A stretch of DNA of 64,000 bases, from positions 44,154-108,153 of the forward strand of contig CAVWIZ010000003.1 in NCBI GenBank assembly GCA_963755195.1, given 5' to 3'. The translations under genes were made by a program, and so were the position numbers. The stretch comes from an uncultured Acidobacteriota bacterium. Its GTDB lineage: Bacteria > Acidobacteriota > Vicinamibacteria > Vicinamibacterales > CAVVIG01. This document shows, in pieces, positions 15,361 through 57,864 of this stretch; within the stretch, counting starts at the first letter, position 1, and the number at the start of each line of letters is the position of its first letter. The notes beneath the pieces are model-generated. The model searched no databases, had not been told where the DNA came from, and worked only from the letters and a program-made list of their open reading frames with translations.

Positions 15361-15609
15361 TCAACTCACGGCCGCCGCTGAGGCGGGGAGGAGCGAATCG
15401 ACCTTCATATTCAGGGACGCGAACCTTTCAGCCAGGATGCGGATGTCGTCGCGCAGGCTTTCGGTGATCACCTCGACATGTCGCCTGCTCTCCGCGAAAC
15501 CGTCGCGCATGCGGGCCTCCAACTGTTCGATGTCCTTCCGCAGCGAGGACTCGACTTTGCGCAGATCCACGCGTAGAGAGTCGACGGCTTCGGCTGTTTC
15601 GGTATCCAT
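15361..15609 (-). CDS. hypothetical coiled-coil small protein
   Basis: 82-aa ORF with a heptad-like charged sequence. A hairpin GGTAGGACGG-AGGC-CCGTCTACC directly precedes the ATG. Confidence 0.4.
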   Translation of the reverse strand: MDTETAEAVDSLRVDLRKVESSLRKDIEQLEARMRDGFAESRRHVEVITESLRDDIRILAERFASLNMKVDSLLPASAAAVS

Positions 15610-15670
15610 GGTAGACGGGCCTCCGTCCTACCATCGTCGCTATGCGAATCGTGTGCCGCTCGTGGACACA

Positions 15671-15697
15671 CCAATTACCAAATTACCCAATCACCCG
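15671..15697 (-). repeat. YGGGTAAT octamer array (3-4 units), 10 nt after the nuoN stop
   Basis: Minus strand reads TGA-ATCTGTTCAT-CGGGTGAT-TGGGTAAT-TTGGTAAT-TGG. Confidence 0.8.
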
Positions 15698-15707
15698 ATG
15701 AACAGAT

Positions 15708-17149
15708 TCAGAAAATGGTGCTGATGGAGGCGGCGGCCCAGTCGAGCACGCGCGCGGGCAGGATGCCGAGGTAGACAATCACGAGCGCCGACACGACGAG
15801 CGCGGCGCCGGCAATCTTCGGCACGGCCGGAAACCGCGCCATCGTCTCGCCCGACGGCGTCATGTACATCATGACGACGATGCGCAGATAGAAGAAGACC
15901 GAGACGACGCTGGTGAGCACGCCGATGATGGCGAGCCAGGTGTAGCCGGCCTTGACGGCCGCGCTGAAGACATACCACTTCGCGATGAACCCGGCCATCG
16001 GCGGGAACCCGCCGAGCGAAAGCATGAAGATCGTCATCAGGGCCGCGAGCACCGGGTGATCGTTCCAGAGTCCGGCGTAGTCGGTCACCTTGTCGTTCGG
16101 CCGGTCCGCGTCTTCGAGCAGACCGATGACGCCAAACGCGCCGAGGTTGGTGATCGCGTACGTCAGCAGGTAGAACAGCACCGCGCCCTTGCCGAGGTCG
16201 TTGCCGGACACGAGCGCGAGCAGCAGGTATCCGCCGTGCGCGATGCTCGAGTACGCCAGCATCCGCTTGACGTTGGTCTGCGCCACCCCCACCACGGTCC
16301 CGACGATCATCGTCGCCGCCGCGACGGGCCAGAGGACGGCGCCCCAGCTGTCGCGGAGCGGTTCGAAGGCCGCGAGAAACACGCGGACGAACGCCGCAAA
16401 AGCGGCCGCCTTGACGCCGGTGGACATGAATCCGGTGACCGCCGGCGGCGCGCCTTCGTAGGCGTCCGGTGTCCACATGTGAAACGGCACCGCCGACACC
16501 TTGAACGCGAACCCCACGAGCAGGAGACCCAGGGCCAGCATCAGCATCGGCGTGGGCGTCGTCGCCTGCGCCGCCACCATGGCGCCAATGCGGTCGAGCC
16601 GCGTGCTCCCCGTCAGCCCGAACGTGAATGCAATGCCGTACAGGAAAAACGCGCTCGAAAACGCGCCGAGCAGAAAATACTTGAAGGCGGCCTCGGTGGC
16701 GATGGGCGAGTCACGTCGAATGCCCGTCAGGACGTACACGGCAATCGAGAGCACCTCGAGGGCGAGGAAGATCACGAGCAGATCGGAAGCGGTCGCCATG
16801 AGCATCATGCCGGCGAGGGCAAACAGCATCAACGCGTAGTACTCGCCGCGCGGCAGACGCTCCCGATCGACGGTCGGCGCCGACAACGCCAGCGAGAGCA
16901 GCCCGACGGCAATCAGTACGCCCGTGACGAACAGCCCGAAGTTGTCGGCCACGACGACGCCGAAACTCGATGCGTTGTGATTCCAGAGCACCGCGCACGC
17001 CAGGGCGGCGCCGATGAGGCCGATGACGCCGAGCGGCGCAATCGGCATCCGCTCGCCGGGGACGCTGAAGGCCTCCGCAATCATCGCGGCGATGGCGGCT
17101 GCCGTCACGCAGGCCATCGGCACGATCGCGTTAAAGGAGCCTGATGCGA

Positions 17150-17153
<4 letters not shown>
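15708..17153 (-). CDS. nuoN: NADH-quinone oxidoreductase subunit N
   Basis: 481-aa polytopic ORF. FKVSAVPFHMWTPDAYEGAP antiporter-like motif; last gene of the nuo operon. Confidence 0.92.
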
Positions 17154-20753: not shown

Positions 20754-20815
20754 CCACGAAGACACGAAGGCACGAAAGATCAGAGGCTCTTCTTCGTGTT
20801 TTCGTGCTTTCGTGG
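20754..20815. repeat. CACGAAG octamer-array hairpin between nuoK and nuoL
   Basis: CCACGAAGA-CACGAAGG-CACGAAAG, a 13-nt loop, then CTTCGTGT-TTTCGTGC-TTTCGTGG. Three direct units face three inverted units. Confidence 0.85.
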
Positions 20816-22710: not shown

Positions 22711-22792
22711 ATCACGAAGACACGAAGGCCACAAAGACACCTCTTGTACAAGAGGCGTTTCGTGTGCCTTCGCGGGCTTCGTGCCTTCGTGA
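22711..22792. repeat. CACGAAG octamer-array hairpin between nuoF and nuoH
   Basis: ATCACGAAGA-CACGAAGG-CCACAAAG-ACA, perfect 16-bp palindrome CCTCTTGTACAAGAGG, then CGTTTCGTGTG-CCTTCGCGGG-CTTCGTGC-CTTCGTGAT. Confidence 0.85.
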
Positions 22793-24205: not shown

Positions 24206-24247
24206 CCAGACTCTAGTCCCCAGACCCTAGACCCCAGTCCCTAGCCC
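24206..24247 (-). repeat. GGNCTRG heptamer x6, 6 nt after the nuoE stop
   Basis: Minus strand reads TAG-GAATAA-GGGCTAG-GGACTGG-GGTCTAG-GGTCTGG-GGACTAG-AGTCTGG. Confidence 0.85.
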
Positions 24248-24253
24248 TTATTC

Positions 24254-29916: not shown

Positions 29917-31557
29917 TCACTGCTCCCACTCGTACCCCGGCGCCGTCGTCAGACGGCCGTCCTCGACCGGCATCCCCACCGTGAAGTGATACAGGCTTTG
30001 AAATGCGTGTCCGGAGAAGCCCATGACGTCGTGAACCGGGTCGTCGAAGAAACAGCCGATGCCGGTGGCACGAGCCGACGCCGCCTCGGCTTCGAGGTAG
30101 AGCACCTGGCCGACCACGCCCGACTCCCAGAACAGGTGACGGTAAAAGGCCGGCCCGAATTCCTGGAGGCTGCGATCGAAATCGGCCAACATCCCGATGC
30201 TGAAAAAACCGTCGGCCGCAATGTCCTGCCCGCAGCTGAGACGCGCGGCCAGTGCGCGACAGTCGCCGCGCGCCAGACGAACGAGCGGGCCGGCCTTCTC
30301 CCAGAGGAACGTGGAACTCGACGCTTTCTTCAGCGCGTCGAGCACGCCCTCGTCCCGCGGCAGAAGGTACAGACCCGGTTCGAGGCCGTCCACGCGGTGG
30401 ACGAACAGCACGAGGTGAATTCGCGGCGTCCACCACATGGCGTCCCACGGCGCATGCGGACCGGGCACGGCGCGGGCAAGCATAGCGACGAAACGGTCGA
30501 CGCCAATCGATGAACGGCCGTCGAACGCCACGGCACTGCGACGCTGGAGGATCAGCCTGCGAGCATCCGCTGACGATGACGGCGAGAATTGGGTAATCGG
30601 GTAATCTGGTAATTGGGTAATTGGTGGTGGTAGGCGACCCGGATCCTCCGTCGCGAGCGCGATCTCGTCGATGAACGACCACTGCACGTGATCCTCGCTC
30701 AACTGGCTCGCGCACCCGGTCCATCGCCCGCCACGAACAGCCCGCACGAGCGCTTCGCGCGACGCCGCACGTCGCACGATTTCGTCGGCGCCTCGCACGG
30801 TGACCGCGAGGATGCAGCCGGGCTCCTCGCGCTCGGCTTCGACGAAGTCTTCGTCGCGATCGATGCCGGTGAGCGCCGCAATGTCACGCTGCGGCCACTC
30901 CGGGAGCAGTGCCGCCCGCCAGCCATGGAGCGCGGCCGCGAGCCGCAGGGCGCCGATGGCGTGACCCAGATCGTGCTGGCAGTACCGGAACGCCCGCTCG
31001 CCGTACTTCCACGACTCGCGCCAATGAATGGAGGTCAGGGCCACCAGGCACACGACGTCGGCGTCCCACGCGGTCGGCCATGCCGTCGGGTCGAAGACCG
31101 ACCGGCGCTCGAGCACGTGGCGATCGGCCGCGTAGTGGAACACCGACGGCGTCTCGGACAAACCGTCGAGCGCACCCGTTACCACGTAGGCCTCGGTCGG
31201 GTGCAGGTTGCCGCTCGAAGGGTTGACGCGGAGCGACCAACGCGAACCGCGAAACTCCTTCCACGCGCTCAGCCCAAGGGCGTGCCGCAGCAGATCGCCG
31301 ACGGCGGCAGCCGTGGGAATCGAGGGCGGCGCCGATGACGTGGGGAAAAAGAGCTGGTCGTAACTGAAAGGTGACGAAGCAGCAGCAGACGGACCGTCCG
31401 GCGCCGGAAACAACGGCACCGAGGCCGCGCCGCTGAACGTACGGAAGGGACGAGGCTGCGACGCCCAGTCGAGATAGCCGGTCGACCGGGCGAACCGATG
31501 AAAGTGGTGCTTGGTGCCGTCGTGGTAGAGATGGACGGCGTCGAGCTCAGACACCAA
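29917..31557 (-). CDS. SagB-type dehydrogenase / nitroreductase family protein with two tandem domains
   Basis: 546-aa ORF. N-terminal LYHDGTKHHFHRF... SagB-like start and a second nitroreductase-like half. The interdomain linker PPPITQLPDYPITQF is encoded by the octamer repeat at 30586-30627. Confidence 0.65.
   Translation of the reverse strand: MVSELDAVHLYHDGTKHHFHRFARSTGYLDWASQPRPFRTFSGAASVPLFPAPDGPSAAASSPFSYDQLFFPTSSAPPSIPTAAAVGDLLRHALGLSAWKEFRGSRWSLRVNPSSGNLHPTEAYVVTGALDGLSETPSVFHYAADRHVLERRSVFDPTAWPTAWDADVVCLVALTSIHWRESWKYGERAFRYCQHDLGHAIGALRLAAALHGWRAALLPEWPQRDIAALTGIDRDEDFVEAEREEPGCILAVTVRGADEIVRRAASREALVRAVRGGRWTGCASQLSEDHVQWSFIDEIALATEDPGRLPPPITQLPDYPITQFSPSSSADARRLILQRRSAVAFDGRSSIGVDRFVAMLARAVPGPHAPWDAMWWTPRIHLVLFVHRVDGLEPGLYLLPRDEGVLDALKKASSSTFLWEKAGPLVRLARGDCRALAARLSCGQDIAADGFFSIGMLADFDRSLQEFGPAFYRHLFWESGVVGQVLYLEAEAASARATGIGCFFDDPVHDVMGFSGHAFQSLYHFTVGMPVEDGRLTTAPGYEWEQ
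30586..30627 (+). repeat. YGGGTAAT octamer array (about 5 units) inside the nitroreductase CDS, antisense to it
   Basis: Plus strand reads GAATTGGGTAAT-CGGGTAAT-CTGGTAAT-TGGGTAAT-TGGTGG. It is translated on the minus strand as PPPITQLPDYPITQF. Confidence 0.85.
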
Positions 31558-31838: not shown

Positions 31839-34800
31839 GTGACCGCGCGGCCGACTTCTGATGCGCTCGCACGATTTCATCCGGCGGTGCGTGCATGGTT
31901 TGGCACGGCGTTCGGCGCGCCCACCCGCCCGCAAACACAGGGCTGGCCCGCCATCGCGCGCGGTGAATCCACACTGATCCTCGCCCCGACCGGCAGCGGA
32001 AAAACGCTGACGGCGTTTCTCTGGTGCCTCGATCGACTGATGTTCGCGCCGTTACCCCACAAGGCGCGGCGGTGCCGCGTGCTCTACGTGTCACCGCTCA
32101 AGGCACTCGCGGTGGACGTCGAGCGCAACCTCCGCGCGCCGCTCGCGGGCATCGCCGCAGCCGCCGAGGCGCGCGGCGACCCGTACATCCGGCCGGCCAT
32201 CGCGATCCGGACGGGCGACACCCCGCAGGCCGATCGGGCCCGTTTCCAGCGCGAACCGGCCGACATCCTGATTACGACGCCCGAATCGCTCTATCTGCTG
32301 CTGACCTCGAACGCCCGCGAAGCGCTCCGCTCGATCGACACGGTCATCGTGGACGAAATCCACGCGCTGGTGCCCACCAAGCGCGGTGCGCACCTGATGC
32401 TGTCGCTCGAGCGCCTCGCCGCGCGCGGCGATCGGCCGCTCCAACGCATCGGCCTCTCGGCGACGCAGCGCCCGCTCGACGAAGTGGCGCGATTCCTCGG
32501 AGGCGTCCAACCGAACAATGCCGCAGGGCGACAGGGCCGCCGGCCCGCGGGCCTGAAAGGCCCGCGCCACAATCGTGAAACCGAGGCTGAAACCGACATC
32601 GACCAGGAATTCGCCATGCACCGGGGCGTGGTCCGCTACCGCCCCGTCACGATTGTCGACGCCGGCCAGAGAAAGCCGCTCGAGTTGAGAATCGACGTGC
32701 CCGTTGAAGACATGGCACGCCTGACGACCTCGGACGACATTCCGAGCGGTCCCGCGTCAGTCGGCGACACGCGACAGTCCATCTGGTCGGCCATCCACCC
32801 GCGGTTGCTCGACCTCATTCGCGCGCATCGCTCGACCCTGGTGTTCGTCAACAGCCGTCGGCTGGCCGAACGGCTCGCCGGCGCGCTCAACGAACTGGCG
32901 GGCGAGATGCTCGTCCGCTCGCATCACGGCTCGATCGCCCGCGAGCAGCGCGTGGAAGTCGAGAACTTGCTGAAATCCGGTGATCTGCGCGGGCTGGTCG
33001 CCACGTCTTCGCTCGAACTCGGCATCGACATGGGCGCCATCGACCTCGTCGTGCAGATCGAGGCGCCGCCGTCGGTCGCGAGCGGCCTGCAGCGGATCGG
33101 CCGCGGCGGCCATCATGTCAACGCGATCAGCAAGGGCGTCATCTTCCCCAAGTTCCGCGGCGACCTCGTCGCGTGCGCGGCCGTGGCCAAAGCCATGCAC
33201 GAGGGAGCGGTCGAAGCCACCCGCTATCCCCGCAACCCCCTCGACATCGTCGCGCAGCAGGTCGTCGCCATGACGGCCATGGACGAGTGGGACGTGGACG
33301 ATCTGTTCGCGACCGTCCGCTGCGCCGCGCCGTTTGCCGAACTCAGTCGAGCTACCTTCGATGGTGTGCTGGACATGTTGTCCGGGCGCTATCCCTCCGA
33401 CGAGTTCGCCGAACTGCGGCCGCGCATCACCTGGGATCGCGCGGCAGGTACGGTTGCCGCGCGCGAAGGCGCCAAGCGCGTCGCGGTCATCAACGGCGGC
33501 ACGATTCCAGACCGCGGCCTCTTCGGGGTGTTCCTTCTGGGAGCGGCGCCCGGAACGTCGCGGGTGGGCGAGCTCGACGAGGAAATGGTGTTTGAAACGC
33601 ACGTCGGCGAGACGTTCGTGCTCGGCGCCTCGTCGTGGCGAGTCGAAGAGATCACGCACGATCGCGTGCTGGTGTCGCCCGCGCCGGGCCAGCCTGGCAA
33701 GATGCCGTTCTGGAAGGGCGACCGCTCCGGCCGCCCAATCGAGCTCGGGCTGGCCATCGGCCGGCTCGTGCACGACTTGCTGCGCCTGCCGCCTGCCGCC
33801 GCCGTCGATCGGCTGACGCGGCAACACGATCTCGACGTCGTGGCCGCCGGAAACCTTCTGCAGTACCTTCGCGATCAGATGGCGGCGACACGCGCCGTAC
33901 CGGACGCCACCACGATTCTCGTCGAACGCGTGCGGGACGACCTGGGCGACTGGCGCGTCTGCGTGCTGTCGCCGCGCGGCGGACGCATTCACGCGCCGTG
34001 GGCGATGGCCGCGGCCGCGAAGATCCGCGAGGAACGAGGCATCGACGTCGAGACCCTCTGGGGCGACGATGGGTTCGTCGTCAGATTTCCGGATGTGGAC
34101 GAGCCGCCCGACGTGCGCCTGCTGCTGCCCGATCCCGACGAAGTCCAGGCGCTCGTCGTCCGCCAGCTTGGAGCCACGGCGATGTTCGCGGCGAAGTTTC
34201 GAGAGAACGCCGCGCGTTCGCTGCTGCTGCCGAAGCGCCGGCCGGGAATGCGCGCGCCGCTCTGGCAGCAGCGCAAACGATCGGCGGATCTGCTGGCGGT
34301 GGCGTCGAGGTACGGATCGTTCCCCGTGCTGCTCGAGACCTACCGCGAGTGCCTCCGCGATTTCTTCGACATGCCGGCGCTCATCAGCACGCTCGCCGAC
34401 ATCCGAAGCCGCACGGTGCGCGTCGCGACGGTCGATTCCGACAAGCCGTCGCCCTTTGCGGCGTCGCTCCTGTTCAGCTATGTGGCGAGCTTCCTGTACG
34501 ACGGTGACGCACCGCTGGCCGAGCGCCGCGCCCAGGCGCTCGCCGTCGATCAAGCGCAACTTCGCGAGCTCATCGGCGACGCCGAGTTGCGCGAACTGCT
34601 CGACGCCGAGTCGATAGACGCCGTCGAGCGCGAGCTGCAACGTCTGGATCCTCGCTACCTGGCGAAAAGCGCGGATGCCGTTCACGACATGCTGTTGGCC
34701 ATCGGCGATCTCACGCTGGAGGAGATACAGGCGCGAACGATCCCGGACGCGGCGGCTCCGGCCATCGACGCGCTGGTCATGGCGAAACGCGCGTTACTCG

Positions 34801-36581
34801 TGAGTGTAGGCGCCGATGCGCGGTACATCGCGGTTGAGGACGCGGCCCGCTATCGTGACGCCCTCGGCGTCTTGCTGCCGACCGGCATCCCGAAGCCGCT
34901 GCTCGCTCCGGCGCCGGATCCACTCGGCAACCTGGCGCGCCGATTCGCGCGGACGCACGCCCCGTTTACCGCGGCCGAGTTCGCGCGGCGCTACGGGCTC
35001 GACGTCGAAGCGGCCAGCGAGGTGCTTGGCAGGCTCACCGCCGACGCCGGACTCGGCCTCGGCCTCATTCAGGGCGAATTCCGGCCAGGCGGCACGGGCC
35101 GCGAGTGGACCGATACCGCGGTCCTTCGGCGGCTTCGCCAGCGCTCGCTGGCCCGGCTTCGCCGGGAGGTCGAACCAGTCGATCAGTCGGTGCTCGCGCG
35201 TCTCGAAACGAAGTGGCAGGGGATTGTGACGAGACGGCACGGCACGGACGCGTTGCTCGACGCGATCGAACAGCTCCAGGGCGCTCCCCTGCCGGCGTCG
35301 ATCCTCGAAACGGAAATCCTGCCCGCGCGCATCGACGCCTACGATCCGGCCGACCTCGATGCCGTCACGGCCGCGGGCGAAGTCGTGTGGGTGGGCGTCG
35401 AACCGATTGGCGACCGCGACGGCCGAATCGCGCTGTACCTTGCGGACGAGCTGTCTCGACTGCTGCCGCCCGATCTCGTGAAACCGAACCTCGACTCGGG
35501 CGAGGCCGCCATCCTCGAGCATCTTCAGGAGCATGGCGCGTCGTTCTTCGGACCGCTGCACACGGCGATCGGCGGCGGCTACCCAGGTGAAACCGTGACG
35601 ATGCTGTGGAATCTGGTGTGGCGAGGCCTCGTCGCGAATGACACCTTTCATGCGCTGCGCGCGTTCACGGCGGCGCACATGCCGAGGCGGCGCTCGCGCC
35701 GGGGCCAATCCTCCAGTGCGACGGCATTTCGATCGCGCCGCAGCGCGCCGCTGTCGGCCGAAGGGCGCTGGACGCTCGTCGCGCGGAACCGGCCTGAGCG
35801 TGGAGCGAAGAGCCCCGCGCGACGGGAGAGCACAGCATGGGCCGCGGCGTGGGCGCAGCAGCTGCTCGCCCGCCACGGAGTGCTGACGCGCGAGGCTGTC
35901 GCGTCTGAAGGCGCTGCCGGTGGATTCGGCGTCGTTTATCCCGTGCTGAAACTGATGGAAGACAGCGGGAAGATTCGGCGCGGCTATTTTGTCGCGGGCC
36001 TCGGCGCAACGCAGTTCGCGCTGCCCGGCGCGCTGGATCTGCTGCGCTCGCTCCGCGACCCGCAGTCACACGATGGTGGCGAACCTGAGGAGGTGGTGTT
36101 GGCCGCGACCGATCCCGCCAATCCCTACGGCGCGGCCATCAAGTGGCCCGCCTTCGCCGGTGCGACTGCACCGGCTTCGGCGCGGCAAGCCCGAGGCACG
36201 GCGTCGACTTCAGCGCGGCAGGCCCAAGACACGGCGCCGGCGACGGCGGGGCGAGGACCCACGCGATCGGTAGGCGCCACGGTGATTCTGGTCGACGGCG
36301 CGCTGGCCGCCTATCTCGCACGCGGTGATCGACAGTTGCTGACGTTTCTGCCGGAGGGCGAGCCCCAGCGGTCCAACACCGCCCGCGCCGTCGGACGCGC
36401 GCTCGTCGCCCGTGCGCGCAGCTCTGCCGGAGACAACCTCGCTCCTCGAGGCATGTTGATTGAGGAAATCGACGGCCTGCCGCCGTCAATTCACGCGATC
36501 GCGCCCCACCTGGTGGCGGCGGGGTTCATCTCAGGGGCGATGGGACTCCAGGCAACGTTTACGAATCGGGTAATTGAGTAA
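31839..36581 (+). CDS. lhr: Lhr-family ATP-dependent DEAD/DEAH-box helicase (large helicase-related protein)
   Basis: 1580-aa uninterrupted ORF. FHPAVRAWF..PTRPQTQGWP..LILAPTGSGKTL (motif I), VIVDEIH (DExH), SHHGSIAREQR, GRGGH motif VI, and a long Lhr-type C-terminal extension. Confidence 0.9.
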   Translation: MTARPTSDALARFHPAVRAWFGTAFGAPTRPQTQGWPAIARGESTLILAPTGSGKTLTAFLWCLDRLMFAPLPHKARRCRVLYVSPLKALAVDVERNLRAPLAGIAAAAEARGDPYIRPAIAIRTGDTPQADRARFQREPADILITTPESLYLLLTSNAREALRSIDTVIVDEIHALVPTKRGAHLMLSLERLAARGDRPLQRIGLSATQRPLDEVARFLGGVQPNNAAGRQGRRPAGLKGPRHNRETEAETDIDQEFAMHRGVVRYRPVTIVDAGQRKPLELRIDVPVEDMARLTTSDDIPSGPASVGDTRQSIWSAIHPRLLDLIRAHRSTLVFVNSRRLAERLAGALNELAGEMLVRSHHGSIAREQRVEVENLLKSGDLRGLVATSSLELGIDMGAIDLVVQIEAPPSVASGLQRIGRGGHHVNAISKGVIFPKFRGDLVACAAVAKAMHEGAVEATRYPRNPLDIVAQQVVAMTAMDEWDVDDLFATVRCAAPFAELSRATFDGVLDMLSGRYPSDEFAELRPRITWDRAAGTVAAREGAKRVAVINGGTIPDRGLFGVFLLGAAPGTSRVGELDEEMVFETHVGETFVLGASSWRVEEITHDRVLVSPAPGQPGKMPFWKGDRSGRPIELGLAIGRLVHDLLRLPPAAAVDRLTRQHDLDVVAAGNLLQYLRDQMAATRAVPDATTILVERVRDDLGDWRVCVLSPRGGRIHAPWAMAAAAKIREERGIDVETLWGDDGFVVRFPDVDEPPDVRLLLPDPDEVQALVVRQLGATAMFAAKFRENAARSLLLPKRRPGMRAPLWQQRKRSADLLAVASRYGSFPVLLETYRECLRDFFDMPALISTLADIRSRTVRVATVDSDKPSPFAASLLFSYVASFLYDGDAPLAERRAQALAVDQAQLRELIGDAELRELLDAESIDAVERELQRLDPRYLAKSADAVHDMLLAIGDLTLEEIQARTIPDAAAPAIDALVMAKRALLVSVGADARYIAVEDAARYRDALGVLLPTGIPKPLLAPAPDPLGNLARRFARTHAPFTAAEFARRYGLDVEAASEVLGRLTADAGLGLGLIQGEFRPGGTGREWTDTAVLRRLRQRSLARLRREVEPVDQSVLARLETKWQGIVTRRHGTDALLDAIEQLQGAPLPASILETEILPARIDAYDPADLDAVTAAGEVVWVGVEPIGDRDGRIALYLADELSRLLPPDLVKPNLDSGEAAILEHLQEHGASFFGPLHTAIGGGYPGETVTMLWNLVWRGLVANDTFHALRAFTAAHMPRRRSRRGQSSSATAFRSRRSAPLSAEGRWTLVARNRPERGAKSPARRESTAWAAAWAQQLLARHGVLTREAVASEGAAGGFGVVYPVLKLMEDSGKIRRGYFVAGLGATQFALPGALDLLRSLRDPQSHDGGEPEEVVLAATDPANPYGAAIKWPAFAGATAPASARQARGTASTSARQAQDTAPATAGRGPTRSVGATVILVDGALAAYLARGDRQLLTFLPEGEPQRSNTARAVGRALVARARSSAGDNLAPRGMLIEEIDGLPPSIHAIAPHLVAAGFISGAMGLQATFTNRVIE

Positions 36582-36673
36582 TCTGGCAATTTGGTAATTG
36601 CGCCATCGCGATGCGATGGCGTTTGGGCAATTACCAATTACTCAATTACCCGATTACTCAATTACCCAATCAC
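36567..36673. repeat. Inverted pair of YGGGTAAT octamer arrays flanking a 9-bp hairpin; fills the lhr/NHL convergent spacer
   Basis: Left arm CGGGTAAT-TGAGTAAT-CTGGCAAT-TTGGTAAT (contains the lhr TAA). Centre CGCCATCGC-GAT-GCGATGGCG. Right arm is the reverse complement of five units and ends at the NHL stop. Confidence 0.9.
36601..36621. terminator. central hairpin of the lhr/NHL convergent spacer
   Basis: CGCCATCGC-GAT-GCGATGGCG (9-bp stem), extended imperfectly by the flanking inverted octamer arrays. Confidence 0.45.
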
Positions 36674-37653
36674 TTCCCTCGCACATACCTGTCCAGCCCG
36701 TGCCGCCGGACGACGGCGCCGTAGACGTTGCCCTGCGCATCGACGCCCACGCCCTCCGCGCCGCTGTGGTCCGGCGTCGTGGACTCGATGTCTTCAATGA
36801 AGTCGATCGGCACGCCGTCCTTCGCGCTGCCGATGCGGAAGCCTTTGCGCCAGCCGGGGTTGTCGGGGCCGGACTCGGAGTCGGCGACGTACAACATGTC
36901 GTCCTTCGTGATGGCGATCCCACTCGGCCGCCCGAACTGTTTCCACGTGTCGAGGAGCTTGCCGTCCTGGTCGTAGATCTTGATCCGGTTGTTTTCACGA
37001 TCGCCGACGAACAGCCGGCCTTGCGAGTCCATGGCAATGGTGTGCGGTTCGCTGATGTCGTCAGGGCCGGCGCCCTTCCGGCCCCACTCCTTGATGTACG
37101 CTCCGTCTTTGGAGAATTTCACGACGCGGCTGTTCGGCGAGCCGCGATGGCCGTCAGTCACGAAAATGTCGCCGTTTCTCGCGGTCACGACGTCGGTCGG
37201 CTGGTTGAAAGTGTCGCGGCCGAGGCCTGCGACGCCGGCTTTGCCGAGCGTCAACAGGAGTTTCCCGTCGCCACTGAACTTGAACACCTGGTGTCCCTTG
37301 CCTGCCGCGCCACGCGAGTCGGTCGCCCAGAAATTCCCGTCCTTATCAACAGAAGCCCCGTGCGGGAACACGAACATCCCCTGTCCCCAACTCTTGAGCA
37401 GCTTCCCCGACGGGTCGAACTTCAGGATCGGCGCCACATCGTCGTGTCCGATGCAGCCGTTGTTGTCTTTGGCGAAGCAGCGCGAGAGGACGAACACGGT
37501 GCCGTCGGGCGCAATGTCCACGGACGTGACTTCACCCCACGTCGCGCCGGCCGGCAACTGTCCCCAATCGGTCGTGCGGCGATAGTAATGCCGCTGCGCG
37601 TGAACGGTCGCGACAGCCAGCGCAAGCAGGGCGATTGCCATGAGTCGTCGCAT
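36670..37653 (-). CDS. secreted NHL-repeat beta-propeller protein (PAL-like)
   Basis: ORF 36670..37749 with start MRRLMAIALLALAVATVHAQ (ATG 37653). Repeated P-x-G-(I/V)-(A/S)-(V/I)-D-x-x-G-N-(I/F)-(F/W/Y)-V-(A/T)-D blades. Confidence 0.75.
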   Translation of the reverse strand: MRRLMAIALLALAVATVHAQRHYYRRTTDWGQLPAGATWGEVTSVDIAPDGTVFVLSRCFAKDNNGCIGHDDVAPILKFDPSGKLLKSWGQGMFVFPHGASVDKDGNFWATDSRGAAGKGHQVFKFSGDGKLLLTLGKAGVAGLGRDTFNQPTDVVTARNGDIFVTDGHRGSPNSRVVKFSKDGAYIKEWGRKGAGPDDISEPHTIAMDSQGRLFVGDRENNRIKIYDQDGKLLDTWKQFGRPSGIAITKDDMLYVADSESGPDNPGWRKGFRIGSAKDGVPIDFIEDIESTTPDHSGAEGVGVDAQGNVYGAVVRRHGLDRYVRGK

Positions 37654-37667
37654 CGGTGGCCCGCCCA

Positions 37668-39260
37668 CTACCGCGCCTCGCACGCAAAATTCGCGGCGTC
37701 GTTCACGCTCCCGGCGCCTTTGTAGCGCGCGACCTGCGGATACGGGCACAGCGGCCTCGTGAACTTCACGCCGCTTGACGCGTCGTCCGGCGAGTTGTAT
37801 TTCGACGCGACGATCGCGGACGGGGCTGCACCATGCTCCACCCAGCGTTCGAGAGCTGCGCTCATATTGCGCGATGGATCGGGTTCAACGGGTGGAAGGC
37901 CCGGCGCCGTGCCGAAGTTGTCGGCGCCGGGTCCGTCGCCGCAGTGCTCCATCCCAGGCACCATATAGAGCCGGATCGTGTCGTCCGCGCCCTTCTTCCC
38001 GAGCTTCGCCGCGGCATTGCGGTAGTAGTCAATCGTCGCTATCGGCGACAGCGCGGGATCGCTCCAGCCGTGAAACAGGATCAGCTTTCCTCCGCGTTTC
38101 CGGAACGCGCGCAGATCCGGATCGATCGCGTTGAGCACGCGGCCTGCCAGATCATCGGCGGCCTTGGCATCACGATCGACATCGAAAGTCCTGTAGTCGT
38201 ACGCGGCGTTCTGAAAGACGATGTTCGACAGGGCCTGCGTGGCTAAGAGGTACGCCGCGCTCCGATCCGCTCCCGCGCCCGACATCCATCCCGCCCATCC
38301 GGCCTCACCACCAGGCTGGAACCCCGGATACAACCGTTCGCCTTTTGCGGTTTGCGGCCCGCCGTAGATTTTCCTGAGCGCCGCAACCTGCGGCGCCGTC
38401 AGGCAGGCATCCGACTCGGGTCCCTTGCACAGGAGCACCGACGGATCGAACACGCACTTGTCCGGCTCGTCGATGATGCCGTCCTTCACGCCGTCTCGCG
38501 CGTCGCACGCTGCAACGGCTGCCGCCTTAACCGCCGCGAATTTTCTATCGGGGAGAGAGCTCGCGGGATCGAGCCTGGTCGCGAGCAGGTTCCAGGTGAG
38601 CCCCGTCAGGATGCGCGTGAAGTTAGCCGCCGGGGCACCTGCGATGATGCCGTCGTAATCGGCCGGATATCGCTGCGCTTCCATCAGGGCCTGACGGCCG
38701 CCGTTGGAACAGCTGCTGAAATACGAATACTTCGCGGGTTCGCCATAGAAGGCGCGGATGATGATCTTGGCCTTCTCGGCGGTCTCATGAATCGCCCGGT
38801 AGCCGTAGTCGGTGATCTTTTCACGATGGCCGAGCGCCCACCGGGCATCGAGGCCGTCGGCGTGATGTCCGGTATCAGTCGATGACGCGGCATAGCCGGC
38901 CTTGAGAGCTGACGCGAGCCCGCCGCCTTCACTGGCGTACTCAATAGCGCCCGCAAACGCGCCGTTGCCTACGCCCTGATACTTGCCGTTCCAGCCGGCG
39001 ACCGGGAGCCACACCTCGAATTCGATGTGTGAGTCTTTCGTGGGTGCAATCACGCCCTGCACTCGGCAGAACGCCGGAAGCGTGACCGGCTGAGCGGGCG
39101 CGCCAGGCACCGCGAACGGCCCGGCCTCAATGGACTTCGCCTGCGTGATCGTCGCGTCGCCGAGCGGCAGCGACTTCAGCTCGGCACAGGGTGTGGCCGC
39201 GCGGGCATTGACGGCCGAGAGCACGCATGTAAGGACCATCGCTCCTGTCACGGCACGCAT
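37668..39260 (-). CDS. tannase/feruloyl esterase family alpha/beta hydrolase, secreted
   Basis: 530-aa ORF with signal peptide. SYFSSCSNGGRQALMEAQRYPADYDGIIAGAP nucleophile region typical of the tannase/feruloyl esterase family. Confidence 0.85.
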   Translation of the reverse strand: MRAVTGAMVLTCVLSAVNARAATPCAELKSLPLGDATITQAKSIEAGPFAVPGAPAQPVTLPAFCRVQGVIAPTKDSHIEFEVWLPVAGWNGKYQGVGNGAFAGAIEYASEGGGLASALKAGYAASSTDTGHHADGLDARWALGHREKITDYGYRAIHETAEKAKIIIRAFYGEPAKYSYFSSCSNGGRQALMEAQRYPADYDGIIAGAPAANFTRILTGLTWNLLATRLDPASSLPDRKFAAVKAAAVAACDARDGVKDGIIDEPDKCVFDPSVLLCKGPESDACLTAPQVAALRKIYGGPQTAKGERLYPGFQPGGEAGWAGWMSGAGADRSAAYLLATQALSNIVFQNAAYDYRTFDVDRDAKAADDLAGRVLNAIDPDLRAFRKRGGKLILFHGWSDPALSPIATIDYYRNAAAKLGKKGADDTIRLYMVPGMEHCGDGPGADNFGTAPGLPPVEPDPSRNMSAALERWVEHGAAPSAIVASKYNSPDDASSGVKFTRPLCPYPQVARYKGAGSVNDAANFACEAR

Positions 39261-48353: not shown

Positions 48354-50021
48354 CTACTGAGTCAACGGCATTCGAGGCAACATCTCATCGCGCATCGCGG
48401 TGTTGTAGAGCAGCGTCGCGATGACGACGGCCGCCTGACGCAAGTCGTCCGGGACCAGCCGATCATAGGTGTCGCTGTTCGTGTGGTGCGTGCGGGTGTC
48501 GTACTCGAGCGGGTCCTGAATGACGCCGGGAGCGGGAATCCCGGCCTGGAAAAAGGGGCGGCAGTCGCCCGGGCACCAGGGGCGCAGCGTCACCAGCGTC
48601 GTGCCGAGATCATTCAGTGGCGCTATCCACTGCTGAAAGATCGGCAGGAGGGCCGCATTACCCGAGAGCCCCACCCCTCGAATCCTGCCGGTCCCGAGGT
48701 CCACGTTGTAAACAGCCGAGAGGAGCGCATGGTCGGGCTTTGGAACAATGGCACCCACTCTTCTGCGCATCGCCTCCGGGATGAGCAACTGCTGCGGCGT
48801 GACGTCGTGCGGCACGTCCGCGATGTGACGGTTCACATAGGCGACCGAGCCGAGGAGGCCCTGCTCTTCTCCCGTCCACAGGGCCACTCTGATCGTTCGT
48901 GCGGGCCGGACGCCAAGCGCGTTCAGGATGCGCATCGCTTCCATCGCGACGACGACACCTGCGCCATCGTCTGTGGCGCCGGTGCCCGCCGCCCAACTGT
49001 CGAGGTGGGCCGTGACCATCACCGCCTCGTTCTTTCGGCGCCCGTCGACACCCGGGATCTCGGCGAACACATTGAAGCCTTCCACACGATCGCCCGTGAA
49101 CTCCACGTCCACGTTCATCTCAACCTTGACCGGCACCTTTCGATCCAACAGCCTGGTCATCCTGAGGTATTCCTCGACCGCCACGACCACAAGCGGAACC
49201 TGCATGGCATGCGCCTTCTGATAGGCGTACATCCCAAGGTTGGAGTTCCAATCCGCGTAAATGGTCCCACCGCTCGCGCCGCCACGCGGATTGTTTCCAC
49301 TCGGGACCATGACGGCGCGAACGCCCTCGTCTTTGAAAAAGCGCGAAATCCGCTCCGCGAACGCTGCGTTCGCGAACCCCCGCTCGACATTTTGTTGAGC
49401 CGCGTCATCGTCGCGTGGCGCGCCCGGCAGAATCCGTCCAAACTCAGCGAGCTTCACATCATCGAACCGATCCGACAGCGGCTTGTCGATCGGGAAGGTC
49501 TCCGGCACGCTCGCCGCCCTTCCAAGCAGGACGATCTTGCCTTCTAGCTTCCCTCGAAGCGCGTCGAATCCCTTCTCGTCGCCGAATCCGTGCACCGACA
49601 CCACGTCTCCGGCGATCCGGCCTGGCGTTGCCGGCGACCACGGACCCGCCGTCGTGATGAAGTTCGCGCCATAGGGCTCCACGAGCCGCACCCATACATT
49701 GCGCTGACGCCAGCCGAACCCGAACTCGCCCCAGCTCTCTTTCTGAACGTTCGAGCTCCCGGCCGCGGCAAGTCGATCCATCGCCCAGGAGACCGCCTTC
49801 TCCAGGCCCGGGGACCCGGTGAGGCGCGGGCCGATGCCGTCCATCAGCTCCGTTGCGTAGTCCATGACTTTCGAGCGCGTCATCCCCTCGTCGCGGATGC
49901 GCCCATACATGACCAGATCGGGAGCATCGCTCGACACCTGAGCCATGACCAGCTTTGCGGCCACAAGGGCGATCATGGTGATCGTCAAGCTTCGTCGAGA
50001 GTTGAATCGTTCGAAGAACAT
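48354..50021 (-). CDS. M28 family metallopeptidase, secreted
   Basis: ORF 48354..50042. HLDSW..GTGATDDGAGV..WTGEEQGLLGS..H(T)NSDT metal-ligand pattern. ATG 50021 or 50039 are possible starts; the TTG at 50042 lies inside the octamer array. Confidence 0.85.
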   Translation of the reverse strand: MFFERFNSRRSLTITMIALVAAKLVMAQVSSDAPDLVMYGRIRDEGMTRSKVMDYATELMDGIGPRLTGSPGLEKAVSWAMDRLAAAGSSNVQKESWGEFGFGWRQRNVWVRLVEPYGANFITTAGPWSPATPGRIAGDVVSVHGFGDEKGFDALRGKLEGKIVLLGRAASVPETFPIDKPLSDRFDDVKLAEFGRILPGAPRDDDAAQQNVERGFANAAFAERISRFFKDEGVRAVMVPSGNNPRGGASGGTIYADWNSNLGMYAYQKAHAMQVPLVVVAVEEYLRMTRLLDRKVPVKVEMNVDVEFTGDRVEGFNVFAEIPGVDGRRKNEAVMVTAHLDSWAAGTGATDDGAGVVVAMEAMRILNALGVRPARTIRVALWTGEEQGLLGSVAYVNRHIADVPHDVTPQQLLIPEAMRRRVGAIVPKPDHALLSAVYNVDLGTGRIRGVGLSGNAALLPIFQQWIAPLNDLGTTLVTLRPWCPGDCRPFFQAGIPAPGVIQDPLEYDTRTHHTNSDTYDRLVPDDLRQAAVVIATLLYNTAMRDEMLPRMPLTQ

Positions 50022-50039
50022 GGCGTATCCCGGCACCAT

Positions 50040-50102
50040 CAATTACCCAATTACCCAATTACCCAATTACCCAATTACTCAATTACCAAATTCCAAATCA
50101 CC
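50040..50102 (-). repeat. YGGGTAAT octamer array (7 units) filling the MFS-to-M28 spacer
   Basis: Plus strand has AATTACCC x4, then AATTACTC, AATTACCA, AATTCCAA. The minus strand gives four GGG tracts with 5-nt TAATT loops. Confidence 0.9.
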
Positions 50103-51600
50103 TGAACATCTGGCTGACAAGCGTCAGCGTCCTGAAGACGCCCCAGCCGATTGGGACACCAGCGAGCAGCCAGCCGGCAGCCACCAGGCCCCACTCGCCT
50201 GCCGGCGCACCAGCCATCGTCGTCTTCGACTGACCGCGCCCGGCCACCGGCGCCCCAGGCGACAAAGTAAACAGGTCTTTCCCGACCGGCCGCACGGCCA
50301 GATTACAGATCAAGCCGACGCCGAGAAAGGCCACGAGGATGTACATCGTGAACGTATAAGCGTTGGCCGGCGCCACGCCGTGGCCGATCTGGAATTCGCG
50401 AATGTAATTCACGAGCACCGGCCCGAGAATGCCGGCGGTGGACCAGGCGGTCAGCAGGCGACCGTGAATCGCGCTCACGTTCCCCACGCCAAACATGTCC
50501 GCCAGGTACGCCGGAATCGTCGCGAATCCTCCGCCGTACATCGTCAGGATGATGCAGTAGATCGCGACAAAGAGCGCCAGGCTGCCGCTTGCTCCCGCCG
50601 CCGGCGCCGAGGCGTAGAGCAACATGCCGAGTGCGAAGAACACCATATACGTGGTCTTGCGGCCTATGTGGTCGGACAGCGACGCCCAGAAGATGCGTCC
50701 GCCGATGTTGAAGAGGCTGAGCAGTCCGATGAAGCCGGCAGCGGCCGACGCCGTGACGCGTCCCTTGAAGATCTCCTGAATCATCGGCGACGCGATGCCG
50801 AGCACGCCTATGCCGGCCGTGACGTTGAGACACAGAACGCCCCAGAGGAACCAGAATTGCGGTGTCTTCCACGCGACGTCCACGGGCACGGAGCCTGCCG
50901 CGGTCGCGGCCTGCGTGTGGGCGGGCGGCGTCCATCCGGCCGGCGACCAGCCAGGCGCCGGCAGACGGTACCCGAACGCACCGGCCATCATCACGACGAA
51001 GTAAATCGCCCCGAATACCACGAACGTCTGCCAGACGCCGACCGACTCCGGCGTGGCGAACTGTTTCATCAACACGTCGGCGAGCGGGGTGCCAATCATC
51101 GCGCCGCCGCCAAATCCCATGATCGCCAGACCCGTCGCCATGCCGCGGCGATCGGGAAACCATTTGATCAGCGTCGAGACCGGCGAAATGTAGCCCAGCC
51201 CCAGGCCACAGCCGCCGATCACGCCCGAACCGAGCCACAGCATCCAGATTTGATGCAGCTCGATGCCGACCGCCGAGACGAAAAACCCTCCGCTCCAGCA
51301 GCACGCGGCCACGACGCCTGCCTTGCGCGGCCCTTCGCGCTCGACCCATGGGCCAAAGATGGCGGCCGACGATCCGAGCATCACGAAAAACAGCGTGAAC
51401 ATCCACCCGAGCGTGCTGATCTTCCAGTCGTCCGGCGCCGACTGCGTGATGCCGATGGCACGGCTGAGCGGCAGCCAGAACACACTGAACCCGTACGCCA
51501 TGCCAATGCACAAGTGGATCGCGAGCGCCGCGGGCGGCACCAGCCAGCGATTGAACTCGGGCCCGGCGATGATGCGATCTTTCGAGAGCAGGTCGGCCAT
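50098..51600 (-). CDS. MFS transporter, oxalate/formate antiporter (OFA) family
   Basis: 500-aa polytopic ORF. N-terminal NRWLVPPAALAIHLCIGMAYGFSVFWLPL and WFPDRRGMATGLAIMGFGGG motifs typical of the OFA family. Confidence 0.8.
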   Translation of the reverse strand: MADLLSKDRIIAGPEFNRWLVPPAALAIHLCIGMAYGFSVFWLPLSRAIGITQSAPDDWKISTLGWMFTLFFVMLGSSAAIFGPWVEREGPRKAGVVAACCWSGGFFVSAVGIELHQIWMLWLGSGVIGGCGLGLGYISPVSTLIKWFPDRRGMATGLAIMGFGGGAMIGTPLADVLMKQFATPESVGVWQTFVVFGAIYFVVMMAGAFGYRLPAPGWSPAGWTPPAHTQAATAAGSVPVDVAWKTPQFWFLWGVLCLNVTAGIGVLGIASPMIQEIFKGRVTASAAAGFIGLLSLFNIGGRIFWASLSDHIGRKTTYMVFFALGMLLYASAPAAGASGSLALFVAIYCIILTMYGGGFATIPAYLADMFGVGNVSAIHGRLLTAWSTAGILGPVLVNYIREFQIGHGVAPANAYTFTMYILVAFLGVGLICNLAVRPVGKDLFTLSPGAPVAGRGQSKTTMAGAPAGEWGLVAAGWLLAGVPIGWGVFRTLTLVSQMFR

Positions 51601-55827: not shown

Positions 55828-56280
55828 ATGACGATCAAATTCCCTGTTCTCGCCCTTATTTCTACTGCGGCTCTGGCGGTGACGACGGCCGGCACGCTTC
55901 GCGCGCAGGCGCCCGCGGCGGCCCCGGCAGCAAAGACAACCAACGACGGTGTGTACACCGAGGCGCAGGTCAAGCGCGGCAACGAGGTGTATCAGGCGCA
56001 GTGCGCGTCATGCCACGACGCACAGCTGGCGGGCAGCGGCACGGCGCCGGCGCTCGCCGGCACCGACTTCAGCGCCAACTGGAAAGACGAAACGGTGAGC
56101 TCCCTCTTCGAGCGCATCCGCGCGACAATGCCGGCGGACAACCCGGGGAGCCTCCAGCGTCCTCAGGTGGCGGATCTTATTGCCTTCATGTTGAACTTCA
56201 ACAAGTACCCCGCAGGGCAAACCGAGCTCGCGACCGATTCCGAGGCGCTGAAAGCGATAAAGATTTCGGCGGTCAAGTAA
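55828..56280 (+). CDS. c-type cytochrome, secreted
   Basis: 150-aa ORF with signal peptide and a single CASCH haem-binding motif (CXXCH). Confidence 0.8.
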   Translation: MTIKFPVLALISTAALAVTTAGTLRAQAPAAAPAAKTTNDGVYTEAQVKRGNEVYQAQCASCHDAQLAGSGTAPALAGTDFSANWKDETVSSLFERIRATMPADNPGSLQRPQVADLIAFMLNFNKYPAGQTELATDSEALKAIKISAVK

Positions 56281-56308
56281 TTCACGGTTCACGGTTCACG
56301 GTTCAGGG
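56281..56308 (+). repeat. TTCACGG heptamer x4 immediately after the cytochrome c stop
   Basis: TAA-TTCACGG-TTCACGG-TTCACGG-TTCAGGG. The last unit forms the left arm of the 56302-56328 hairpin. Confidence 0.85.
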
Positions 56309-56328
56309 TTCGAACCGGGAACCCTGAA
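56302..56328. terminator. hairpin between convergent cytochrome c and MBL genes
   Basis: 10-bp stem TTCAGGGTTC / GAACCCTGAA with a 7-nt loop. No clear U-run on either strand. Confidence 0.45.
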
Positions 56329-57800: not shown

Positions 57801-57822
57801 GCCCTCCTGAAGTCCTGCCGCT

Positions 57823-57861
57823 AGAAAGAAAAAGACCCGCCCTCTGTGAAGAGGGCGGGTC
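57823..57861 (-). terminator. rho-independent terminator of the TonB-receptor gene
   Basis: On the minus strand, an 11-bp perfect stem GACCCGCCCTC / GAGGGCGGGTC with a 6-nt loop, followed by TTTTTCTTTCT. Confidence 0.75.
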
Positions 57862-57864
57862 TCA

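Follow-up and report, generated by a model that had tools for sequence, protein, structure and literature searches.

The DNA analysed here, referred to as the window, is a stretch of 64,000 nucleotides from an uncultured Acidobacteriota bacterium, in which tandem arrays of an octamer occur at five loci, beside or within the genes listed below. Pfam searches bore out the names that an earlier, sequence-only reading of the window had given to the genes next to the arrays. Each array forms one arm, or G-arm, whose G-rich strand is the strand given.

15671-15697, minus strand: single G-arm of three units (GGTGAT, GGTAAT, GGTAAT), 3′ of the NuoN-like gene
15708-17153, minus strand: NuoN-like gene (Pfam Proton_antipo_M), with a TGA stop at 15708-15710
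29917-31557, minus strand: SagB/ThcOx dehydrogenase open reading frame of 545 aa, a genuine gene that contains an array
30584-30627, plus strand: array of four to five units, its G-strand antisense to the SagB/ThcOx dehydrogenase gene
31839-36581, plus strand: Lhr gene (Pfam)
36567-36598, plus strand: G-arm at the lhr 3′ end, CGGGTAAT TGAGTAAT CTGGCAAT TTGGTAAT
36599-36627, no strand assigned: central GC hairpin between two arms, GCGCCATCGC GATG CGATGGCG, with no qualifying T tract on either strand
36628-36674, minus strand: G-arm of about six units at the 3′ end of the NHL protein gene
36670-37749, minus strand: NHL protein gene (Pfam)
50040-50102, minus strand: single G-arm of about seven to eight units, at the 3′ end of the MFS transporter gene
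50098-51600, minus strand: MFS transporter gene (Pfam)
57822-57863, minus strand: site resembling a canonical intrinsic terminator just past the 57865 array, with 9 GC pairs in a stem of 14 bp and then TTTTTCTTTCT
57865-57926, minus strand: single G-arm of about seven to eight units, after the outer-membrane receptor gene
ending at 57922, minus strand: outer-membrane receptor gene (Pfam CarboxypepD_reg)

Exact copies of YGGGTAAT number 16 in the window, against 0.92 expected and with 0 shuffles reaching 16, and all except one fall in six arms at the five loci. When GGTAATNNGGTAAT was searched with up to two mismatches, 26 matches were obtained (0.52 expected), 26 of 26 within the six arms, and Tandem Repeats Finder returned period-8 arrays at 15671-15696, 30587-30624, 36569-36599, 36628-36674, 50040-50102 and 57866-57924. 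By all three approaches, the arrays are present at the five loci where they had been noticed earlier, a density of five loci per 64 kb, with three to eight units per arm in this genome. The window also holds other 7-8-nt tandem arrays, built of different units.

The sequence-only reading described the arrays as always lying in the sense orientation, at or just after a stop codon. This holds for five of the six arms, in which the G-rich strand has the same sense as the gene ending there, and fails for the array at 30586-30627, which is intragenic and antisense in the SagB/ThcOx gene. The closeness to the stop also holds for the five arms, with nuoN at the outer edge of the 0-10 nt given for the start of the array or slightly past it: there, the array begins 10-12 nt past the TGA stop, and a 7-bp hairpin lacking a T tract comes after it. 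At the other four arms the stop codon is itself part of an array unit. The lhr gene ends in AAT CGG GTA ATT GAG TAA, with the stop TAA at 36579-36581, and direct reading of the sequence confirms that its last four codons (RVIE) and the stop are themselves repeat units. In the case of NHL, the stop TGA (36670-36672) belongs to the in-phase first unit GTGAT, and the TGA of the MFS gene (50098-50100) to the first unit GGTGAT of an array whose end lies 18 nt short of the start of the following M28 peptidase gene (ATG at 50021). The TAA of the TonB receptor gene (57922-57924) falls within an in-phase CTTCTAAT unit, although this gene reaches the array only if a frameshift is accepted near 58014-58100.

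This bias of position and strand is real and extends well beyond the window. One pattern scan of species-representative genomes found at least 119 loci; about 43 in Acidobacteriota and 33 in Chloroflexota are among the matches listed, from which the related loci denoted below by L numbers were drawn. The unit is therefore present in other Acidobacteriota, where the sequence-only reading had proposed to look for it, and in Chloroflexota as well, and full elements also occur on three GC-rich viral contigs among the matches listed. All inverted pairs among the matches listed (45 of 45) carry the G-arm 5′ on both strands, with 0 in the reverse arrangement. A same-sense called stop lies at -25 to +40 nt of 52 arms among the matches listed, and many of the array-adjacent stops are the unit's own TAA (d = -5, -13 or -21). 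Six apparent cases of a C-strand following a stop were checked by eye; four of them have short partner arms, and the true exceptions to the polarity among the matches listed are one or two (L075, perhaps L045). Single arms without a partner are sense to the upstream gene too, three of them in the window and others at L020, L035, L099, L111 and L116. At L037, an element follows each of nusG, rplK, rplA and rplJ. Elements are unevenly spread among relatives: 43 kb of L122 and L123 taken together contain none. Genes were called with our own GC3-based caller (GC3 > GC1 > GC2, with 5′ overlaps tolerated), which misses genes in mid-GC genomes.

The intragenic array of the SagB/ThcOx gene is translated as an inter-domain linker, PPITQLPDYPITQ, which is retained in homologs at 75-81% identity, and sits in the sole orientation without stops. 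Moreover, elements are also found directly upstream of start codons (L008/L014, L057, L106). Both observations indicate that the array sequence can persist where a role in a 3′-UTR is impossible.

Across genomes the unit reads Y-K-G-G-T-A-A-T, with the GTAAT core conserved at 95% or more, the A at position 7 at 100% and the flanking G and T at 98%. Units of the TAG type are absent because of the invariant A at position 7, whereas position 3 is the least conserved G of the unit, and units reading TTGGTAAT or TTTGTAAT occur often. Four units is the commonest arm length (58 of 86 arms in Acidobacteriota), the order of unit variants recurs across loci, the G-strand of the arms contains 3.8% C, and stops occur in all three sense frames in 140 of 147 arms. 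The spacing of GGG runs in YGGGTAAT, 5 nt apart at 50042-50073 and 57881-57912, could suggest 3′ elements folding as G-quadruplexes (GGG-N5 four times). This is most improbable, as the conserved core is GTAAT and not GGG, and it was rejected because four or more GGG runs occur in only 22 of the 147 arms (15%).

Between the convergent lhr and NHL genes, where two arms face each other, the earlier reading proposed that the whole 88-nt spacer folds as one long imperfect hairpin, and the predicted energies agree with it (-53.5 kcal/mol with z of -7.5 on one strand, -63.4 kcal/mol with z of -8.8 on the other). Paired elements elsewhere have predicted folds of -51 to -68 kcal/mol (z of -6 to -8.5). 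The RNA of the single MFS arm (50000-50110) is predicted to be unstructured, with a fold weaker than that of shuffled sequences (z of +1.5). The syntenic relative L121 keeps an array at the lhr end and another at the NHL end, with two genes between them and changed neighbours; since the arrays are present there yet two genes apart, the long hairpin of the window is probably two single arms brought face to face and not a designed module. The idea that the arrays form part of a terminator module was not supported: one array only, at 57865, precedes a canonical terminator, formed by 57863-57832 and its T tract, of which it is not a part. A terminator scan gave nothing qualifying at 36450-36800 or 15550-15750, and the arrays themselves have no GC-rich hairpin followed by a T tract. 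Sigma-70-like promoters were absent in and beside the three arrays searched (15671, 36567-36673 and 57865). Rfam gave no gathering-score match in the window and, on eight related loci, nothing beyond miRNA-hairpin noise below the threshold and one tRNA located outside the arrays.

Comparison of the orthologous loci L014 and L008 shows 31 of 33 identical positions in the G-arm and 27 of 32 in the C-arm, with about 82% identity in the flanking coding sequence and about 50% in the loop, and L010, L080 and L032 follow the same trend. The loops between arms are specific to each locus, and species differ less in the stop-proximal arm than in the adjoining coding sequence. These data bear on whether the arrays could be neutral microsatellites, born by replication slippage in AT-rich intergenic DNA. 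The arrays of other 7-8-nt units in the window would agree with such an origin, as would the homogeneity of its longest octamer arrays, where four perfect TGGGTAAT units (50042-50073) suggest recent slippage. Slippage, however, does not account for one unit type at five loci of the window and in dozens of genomes. Above all, the polarity of 45 pairs to 0, the four-unit peak and the conservation above coding DNA leave neutral microsatellites with almost no probability, as the sequence-only reading had argued. An assembly artefact, the other objection considered earlier, is excluded on the same grounds, with a bias that generalises, a peaked arm length and conservation between species. The same three features agree with an element that is read in the same sense as the gene upstream.

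An improbable alternative, though a less remote one than the microsatellites, is that the arrays act in DNA as binding sites for a protein. They would serve as nucleation sites of nucleoid or silencer type where a genome of 65% GC is richest in AT, as a polar roadblock or as a motif similar to an uptake signal, and their orientation would be set with respect to the incoming RNA polymerase. A GTAAT core conserved past the needs of stops or base pairing, a unit number fixed at about four and an intragenic copy in the orientation permissive for a polar barrier are all in line with this proposal, as is the placing of the uptake sequences of Neisseria and Haemophilus, which likewise lie in inverted pairs at the ends of genes and within open reading frames. 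On the other hand, a period of 8 bp puts successive sites on different faces of B-DNA, and binding to DNA gives no reason for an array to start at, or contain, a stop codon.

Several known systems resemble the arrays in part. The STRR sequences of cyanobacteria are reportedly short tandemly repeated repetitive heptamers, and they share with the arrays a dispersed intergenic occurrence of 7-8-nt units, with few copies in each array and several unit families per genome. The STRR heptamers are said to be confined to heterocystous cyanobacteria, whereas the arrays have a period of 8 and belong to Acidobacteriota and Chloroflexota, and we know of no report of STRRs abutting stop codons with a fixed polarity. 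In Escherichia coli, REPs that lie at most 15 nt from a stop codon are said to stall terminating ribosomes. The arrays, too, start inside the ribosome footprint of the stop, a possible route to modulate the output of the upstream gene. Nevertheless, the stalling by E. coli REPs reportedly needs a stable hairpin, and three of the five loci of the window are single unstructured arms. The DUS of Neisseria and the USS of Haemophilus are abundant short motifs which form inverted terminator-like pairs at gene ends and are tolerated inside open reading frames in permissive frames; all of these are features of the arrays, but DUS and USS are not organised in tandem. Likenesses to the GGUAAU of the 16S 530 loop, the Y-box ATTGG, the H-NS high-affinity motif, RNase E or PUF consensus sites and Rho rut sites were considered as well and were each individually unconvincing.

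A close parallel is found in the REP/BIME sequences and the GTAG-tagged super-family (Di Nocera et al. 2013, PMC3733652). These are repeats of high copy number at gene ends, where they donate stop codons; they sometimes lie inside open reading frames and form inverted dimers 20-100 bp apart. The statement that the unit is no described REP or BIME family is right as regards formal membership and misses how closely its behaviour parallels that of published REPs (PMC3733652). Both REPs and paired arrays form stem-loops in transcripts, which in the case of the arrays are predicted. A REP, however, is a palindrome of 20-40 bp with a GTAG or CGTC tag, whereas an arm is made of direct octamers without self-complementarity, only pairs of arms form hairpins, and neither tag is present in the arrays, with their GTAAT core. 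The strict polarity of single arms with respect to the upstream gene and the range over two phyla also set the arrays apart from REPs. With the REPIN-RAYT system (Bertels and Rainey 2011, PMC3116915) the arrays share two inverted arms around a spacer, hundreds of copies per genome and vertical persistence. In REPINs the spacer and arms form one conserved unit, and a single-copy RAYT is needed (PMC3116915), whereas the arrays have locus-specific loops and, in Acidobacteriota, a stop-proximal arm better conserved than the distal one.

Selfish spread is a serious rival, although an unlikely one on balance. The arrays would be non-autonomous DNA of REPIN or MITE type without host function, copied for example by a tyrosine transposase of RAYT/TIRYT type, and Acidobacteria do encode a distinct group of TIR-associated tyrosine transposases, which counts in favour of such an origin (PMC3733652). 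The polarity would derive from a palindromic founder (G-arm, loop and C-arm) and from the purge of stop-bearing sense copies inside genes. High-copy dispersal, an arm length that hardly varies, unit variants in an order that recurs across loci, copies on viral contigs and an intragenic copy only in the stop-free orientation are consistent with this rival, as are stop donation and intragenic copies in general, both published traits of REPs (PMC3733652). The patchy density among close relatives also looks more like a selfish family than like an essential signal. In contrast, inspection by eye showed no direct-repeat flanks around the inverted arms, and the interiors between them are locus-specific, unlike those of MITEs. 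Partnerless single arms are still sense to the upstream gene, a polarity that is not explained by a selection filter acting on intergenic DNA, and orthologous gene ends of different species retain their arrays, with a G-arm conserved above coding DNA.

The arrays are best regarded, with a probability of roughly 0.5, as a real REP/BIME-like family of dispersed, high-copy gene-end repeats made of tandem octamers, present in many Acidobacteriota and Chloroflexota and most likely acting in the 3′ flank of transcripts. Full-text literature searches, made with the repeat sequence itself and with related descriptions, gave nothing specific. The basic module is an array of YKGGTAAT, typically of four units (about 32 nt), which abuts or contains the stop codon on the coding strand. 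This strand is rich in G, T and A, with about 4% C and TAA in all three frames, and the complementary strand mostly has no stop in any frame. A module on its own is predicted to be unstructured; with an inverted copy past a short, often GC-rich spacer, it would form a stem-loop of 40-45 bp. The element would be part of the transcript, directly 3′ of the upstream gene, and its stop-proximal arm would carry the sequence-specific role, terminating translation of every frame exactly where the gene ends and offering a C-poor, AU-rich single-stranded platform to a factor or nuclease. Paired arms would in addition provide a long stem-loop, also between operon cistrons, as a structure for 3′-end processing, stabilisation or termination. 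New copies probably arise through the copying of a master arm and local slippage, and selection would retain only copies with the stop-bearing strand in sense at gene ends, or those in antisense that stay in frame within tolerant linkers. Counting against this 3′-flank reading, one array only of the window precedes a canonical terminator, and the asymmetries given below are not upheld in Chloroflexota. A bolder and more doubtful version would see in the YKGGTAAT arrays an unrecognised gene-end punctuation of both phyla, in which a dedicated RNA- or ssDNA-binding protein or nuclease reads the four-unit, C-poor sense platform and couples translation termination to mRNA 3′-end formation, processing or stabilisation, a signal that phages would have adopted.

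Acidobacteriota and Chloroflexota are among the most abundant bacteria of soils and sediments, and to our knowledge almost nothing is known of gene punctuation in them. The motif is simple and easily searched, a gene-end mark of fixed polarity, often a stop donor, found between cistrons of a core operon (nusG-rplKAJ) and in viruses. If functional, it would offer a handle on the formation and stability of transcript 3′ ends in both phyla, a better annotation of gene ends and a portable genetic part. If selfish, it would represent a new REP-like kind built from tandem octamers, with an unusual polarity and a cross-phylum range, and would bear on the origin and persistence of such repeat populations.

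A metagenome scan for same-species copy-number variants, carried out with a 20-mer from the receptor gene end, returned only two unrelated contigs of 42% GC, and an exact-match search with the SagB protein of the window matched no contig. As for asymmetries between arms, which lend weaker support to the gene-end element, pattern-perfect arms in Acidobacteriota are stop-proximal in 23 cases versus distal in 7, a count whose 'neither' classes are uninformative because the gene caller misses genes of mid-GC genomes, and in Chloroflexota the relation is reversed or not significant. Sense-strand mismatches in Acidobacteriota are 66 of G.U type versus 44 of A.C type, with 16 versus 27 in Chloroflexota, and this wobble-pair asymmetry, which is weak and confounded by mutation bias, does not allow a choice between a role in RNA and one in DNA. 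The variable YK positions agree between partner arms at 0.42 versus 0.27 after shuffling. Finally, stop codons beside arrays show a modest shift, toward TAA in the high-GC group and toward TAG in Terriglobia.

The octamer YGGGTAAT occurs 16 times in the window against 0.92 expected matches, and a pattern of two units, allowing at most two mismatches, 26 times against 0.52, with 26/26 of these inside six arms. These counts, together with Tandem Repeats Finder, confirm the arrays where the sequence-only reading had placed them, and the names it gave to the neighbouring genes agree with Pfam.

Period-8 arrays (Tandem Repeats Finder) and neighbouring genes (Pfam) in the window
15671-15696, array
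15708-17153 (-), NuoN-like antiporter subunit
30587-30624, array
31839-36581 (+), Lhr
36569-36599, array
36628-36674, array
36670-37749 (-), NHL-repeat protein
50040-50102, array
50098-51600 (-), MFS transporter
57866-57924, array
57922-57924 (-), stop of the CarboxypepD_reg outer-membrane receptor (stop from C-terminal alignment)

The receptor ORF switches frame near 58014-58100 (- strand), and a relative's receptor has a C-terminus that aligns end to end with the frame closing in ...KVSATFDF* at 57922, so 57922-57924 was taken as the true stop. The two frames on this strand, 57922-58371 with the conserved C-terminus and 58014-61247 with a 1077-aa N-terminal ORF, imply a frameshift, pseudogene or sequencing error near 58014-58100.

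It had been proposed that the G-rich strand is always the sense strand of the gene just ended, with the array starting 0-10 nt from its stop codon. The orientation holds for five arms (nuoN, lhr, NHL, MFS and receptor). The lhr gene ends in AAT CGG GTA ATT GAG TAA, where four codons plus the stop are indeed made of repeat units, the NHL and MFS genes have their TGA within first units (GTGAT/GGTGAT), and the receptor TAA lies within an in-phase CTTCTAAT unit; the nuoN array starts 10-12 nt past the stop. Neither part of the rule applies to the array at 30586-30627, which is not intergenic but occupies the middle of ORF 29917-31557(-), its G-strand being antisense. This ORF is a genuine gene: an identical 545-aa protein is recorded along with thousands of full-length SagB/ThcOx-type homologs. 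The array codes for the inter-domain linker PPITQLPDYPITQ, and ITQLPDYP-type linkers are also present in homologs at 75-81% identity (e.g. PPITQLPDYPTTRF and PQITRLPDYPVTQ), one of which keeps a recognisable GATTACCC array in its linker DNA (L120, a contig of a syntenic relative, 10936-10967). Together with synteny, the SagB homologs put the window in or near Vicinamibacterales. Tolerance of the antisense orientation is mechanical: a period of 8 over three units puts the TAA of GGTAAT in all three frames, while the complement is usually stop-free. Among the 147 arms collected from the matches listed, 140 have a stop in each sense frame, and 114 are stop-free on the opposite strand. The same linker is a hot spot for tandem repeats that differ by lineage (protein alignment columns ~350-395), some homologs carrying the octamer (ITQLPDYP), others PDLPDL-type repeats, and the syntenic contig L121 a 9-mer, TCCAGCCCT, in 10.9 copies (10939-11036; PAFPAFPALPAL...).

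Searching species-representative genomes for three GGTAAT-N2 units in a row gave at least 119 loci, of which those listed include at least 43 in Acidobacteriota (Vicinamibacterales, Terriglobia, Sulfotelmatobacter, Solibacter and Angelobacter) and at least 33 in Chloroflexota (mainly Anaerolineae, Ardenticatenaceae and Promineifilaceae). The other loci listed are mostly from Bacteroidota, have different spacer dinucleotides and look like ordinary simple repeats. For the listed loci of the first two phyla, the unit is Y-K-G-G-T-A-A-T with a GTAAT core at 95% or more, the two positions left free by the search pattern being still limited to Y and K. Arm edges are sharp, the order of unit variants recurs between loci, and arm length peaks sharply at four units (58/86 Acidobacteriota arms among the matches listed).

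Genes around the 147 arms were called with a home-made caller requiring GC3 > GC1 > GC2. A same-sense stop lies -25 to +40 nt from the 5′ end of 52 arms; in about a quarter of these it is the own TAA of a unit (d = -5, -13 or -21), and in others it belongs to an in-phase degenerate unit. In all 45 inverted pairs among the matches listed (45/45), the G-arm is 5′ of the C-arm whichever strand is read. Sense orientation toward both flanks is automatic for such palindromic pairs; what is not trivial is the absence of the reverse arrangement (0 cases) and the fact that unpaired arms also follow the rule, including three in the window and those of L020, L035, L099, L111 and L116. The C-strand directly follows a stop in six apparent cases, 4/6 of them with short partner arms, which leaves one or two real polarity exceptions among the 147 arms (L075 and perhaps L045). 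Other exceptions are arms adjoining divergent gene starts (L057, L106, L036) and the orthologous elements of L008 (3716-3807) and L014 (1544-1629), which are squeezed in between two genes, the stop falling within the G-arm and the C-arm being followed after 4-8 nt by the next ATG. The latter elements fill the whole stop-to-ATG space, so that a free Shine-Dalgarno sequence would not fit.

As had been suggested, the 88-nt lhr/NHL spacer is predicted to fold into one hairpin on either strand (-53.5 and -63.4 kcal/mol; z -7.5 and -8.8). Fold prediction leaves single arms unstructured and gives paired elements stems of 40-45 bp (-51 to -68 kcal/mol). The arms abut in Chloroflexota, and in Acidobacteriota are separated by a median of ~33 nt, often with a small GC hairpin. 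In the window, only the 57865 array has a canonical terminator after it, and the two are distinct. In L037, nusG, rplK, rplA and rplJ each have an element behind them; core operons thus tolerate such elements, not all of which can be efficient terminators.

In L121, whose SagB protein is 79% identical to that of the window, the lhr and NHL genes both end in arrays with a TGA stop in the first unit, despite two other genes lying between them, and the arrays thus move together with gene ends. The long hairpin of the window is most simply read as two single arms set face to face by convergent genes. The Lhr C-termini (L122 ...GLQATFRV*, L121 ...QATFGQ*, window ...GLQATFTNRVIE*) place the array start exactly at the end of the conserved protein. 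Between the L014 and L008 loci, from two species, the stop-proximal G-arm is identical at 31/33 positions, the flanking coding sequence at ~82%, the distal C-arm at 27/32 and the loop at ~50%, and this order is repeated in three Terriglobia genomes. Weaker observations agree with this in Acidobacteriota: pattern-perfect arms in the matches listed from that phylum are 23 stop-proximal versus 7 distal (5 versus 14 in Chloroflexota, where gene calls are poor), and variable positions agree between partner arms at 0.42 versus 0.27 by chance in Acidobacteriota.

Polarity, the arm length distribution with its peak, and cross-species conservation rule out assembly artefacts and uphold the earlier rejection of neutral microsatellites; G-quadruplex elements were also discarded, the unit logo being among the evidence. 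We favour, at a probability of about 0.5, a gene-end element that is transcribed and in which constraint falls on the stop-proximal arm. This arm would supply stops in every frame and a C-poor, AU-rich single-stranded platform, and with the distal arm could form a long stem-loop for 3′-end processing, stability or termination. The main rival, a rather unlikely one, is a selfish REPIN/MITE-like family, whose apparent polarity would derive from a palindromic founder and from selection against sense-strand stops in genes. More distant relatives lack arrays, and L122 and L123 contain none in 43 kb; array density is therefore patchy, which suits a selfish family, as do the intragenic copy at 30586-30627 and complete elements on three viral contigs (61-63% GC, among the matches listed), whereas the polarity of single arms, loops that differ between loci and the high conservation of the G-arm count against it. 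That the arrays are DNA-level protein-binding sites seems improbable.

In behaviour the family resembles REP/BIME elements: its high copy number, gene-end position, inverted dimers, stop codon donation and occasional intragenic copies are all published properties of GTAG-tagged REPs (PMC3733652). The octamer arm is, however, a direct tandem array and not a palindrome, and lacks the GTAG tag, so the earlier statement that this is no described REP or BIME family stands for membership, but not for behaviour. No matching family was found in Rfam, and full-text literature searches returned no description of the YKGGTAAT unit and architecture. Conceptually, the family belongs with the REP-like repeats dispersed at gene ends, as a variant distinguished by its tandem-octamer build, strict polarity, stop codon coupling and two-phylum range.

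Short tandem arrays seem to arise readily in these genomes in general. A second dispersed family is built of CACGAAGA octamers in tandem, arranged as inverted arms of which the purine-rich one is 5′ whichever strand is read; it forms hairpins between genes of the nuo operon (20755-20814 and 22713-22791), e.g. from the nuoK-like stop to the nuoL-like start, and a related array occurs in the nuo operon of L120 (18045-18070). The heptamer TTCACGG (4.4 copies, 56281-56311) is another stop-abutting array with a different unit: its first base directly follows the TAA of a cytochrome c gene (55828-56280, Pfam), and it continues into a hairpin common to a convergent metallo-beta-lactamase-fold gene. 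Other 7-nt arrays occupy non-coding spacers at 24206-24248 and 61455-61507 (AGACCCT/CTAG-rich, ACTTTCA), and in L120 nuoA is preceded by inverted arms of TAGTCGT (13132-13243); some 7-nt arrays lie in divergent promoter regions, not at gene ends. In one Anaerolineales MAG (L043 1627-2867; L096; L119), GGTAAT arrays that all point the same way alternate with a hairpin-like, conserved unit of ~48 nt (TACATCCTGAGCGGAGGG...GTAGTCGAAGGATG, at least three tandem repeats), and L043 gave no match when scanned against Rfam. Finally, two adjacent 21-nt tandem repeats at 62208-62401, TGGCCGTGGGACCGCCACGGC (4.9 copies) and GCGCCACGAACAGCGACAGGC (3.7 copies), lie inside ORF 61626-62807(+) and would give 7-aa protein repeats.
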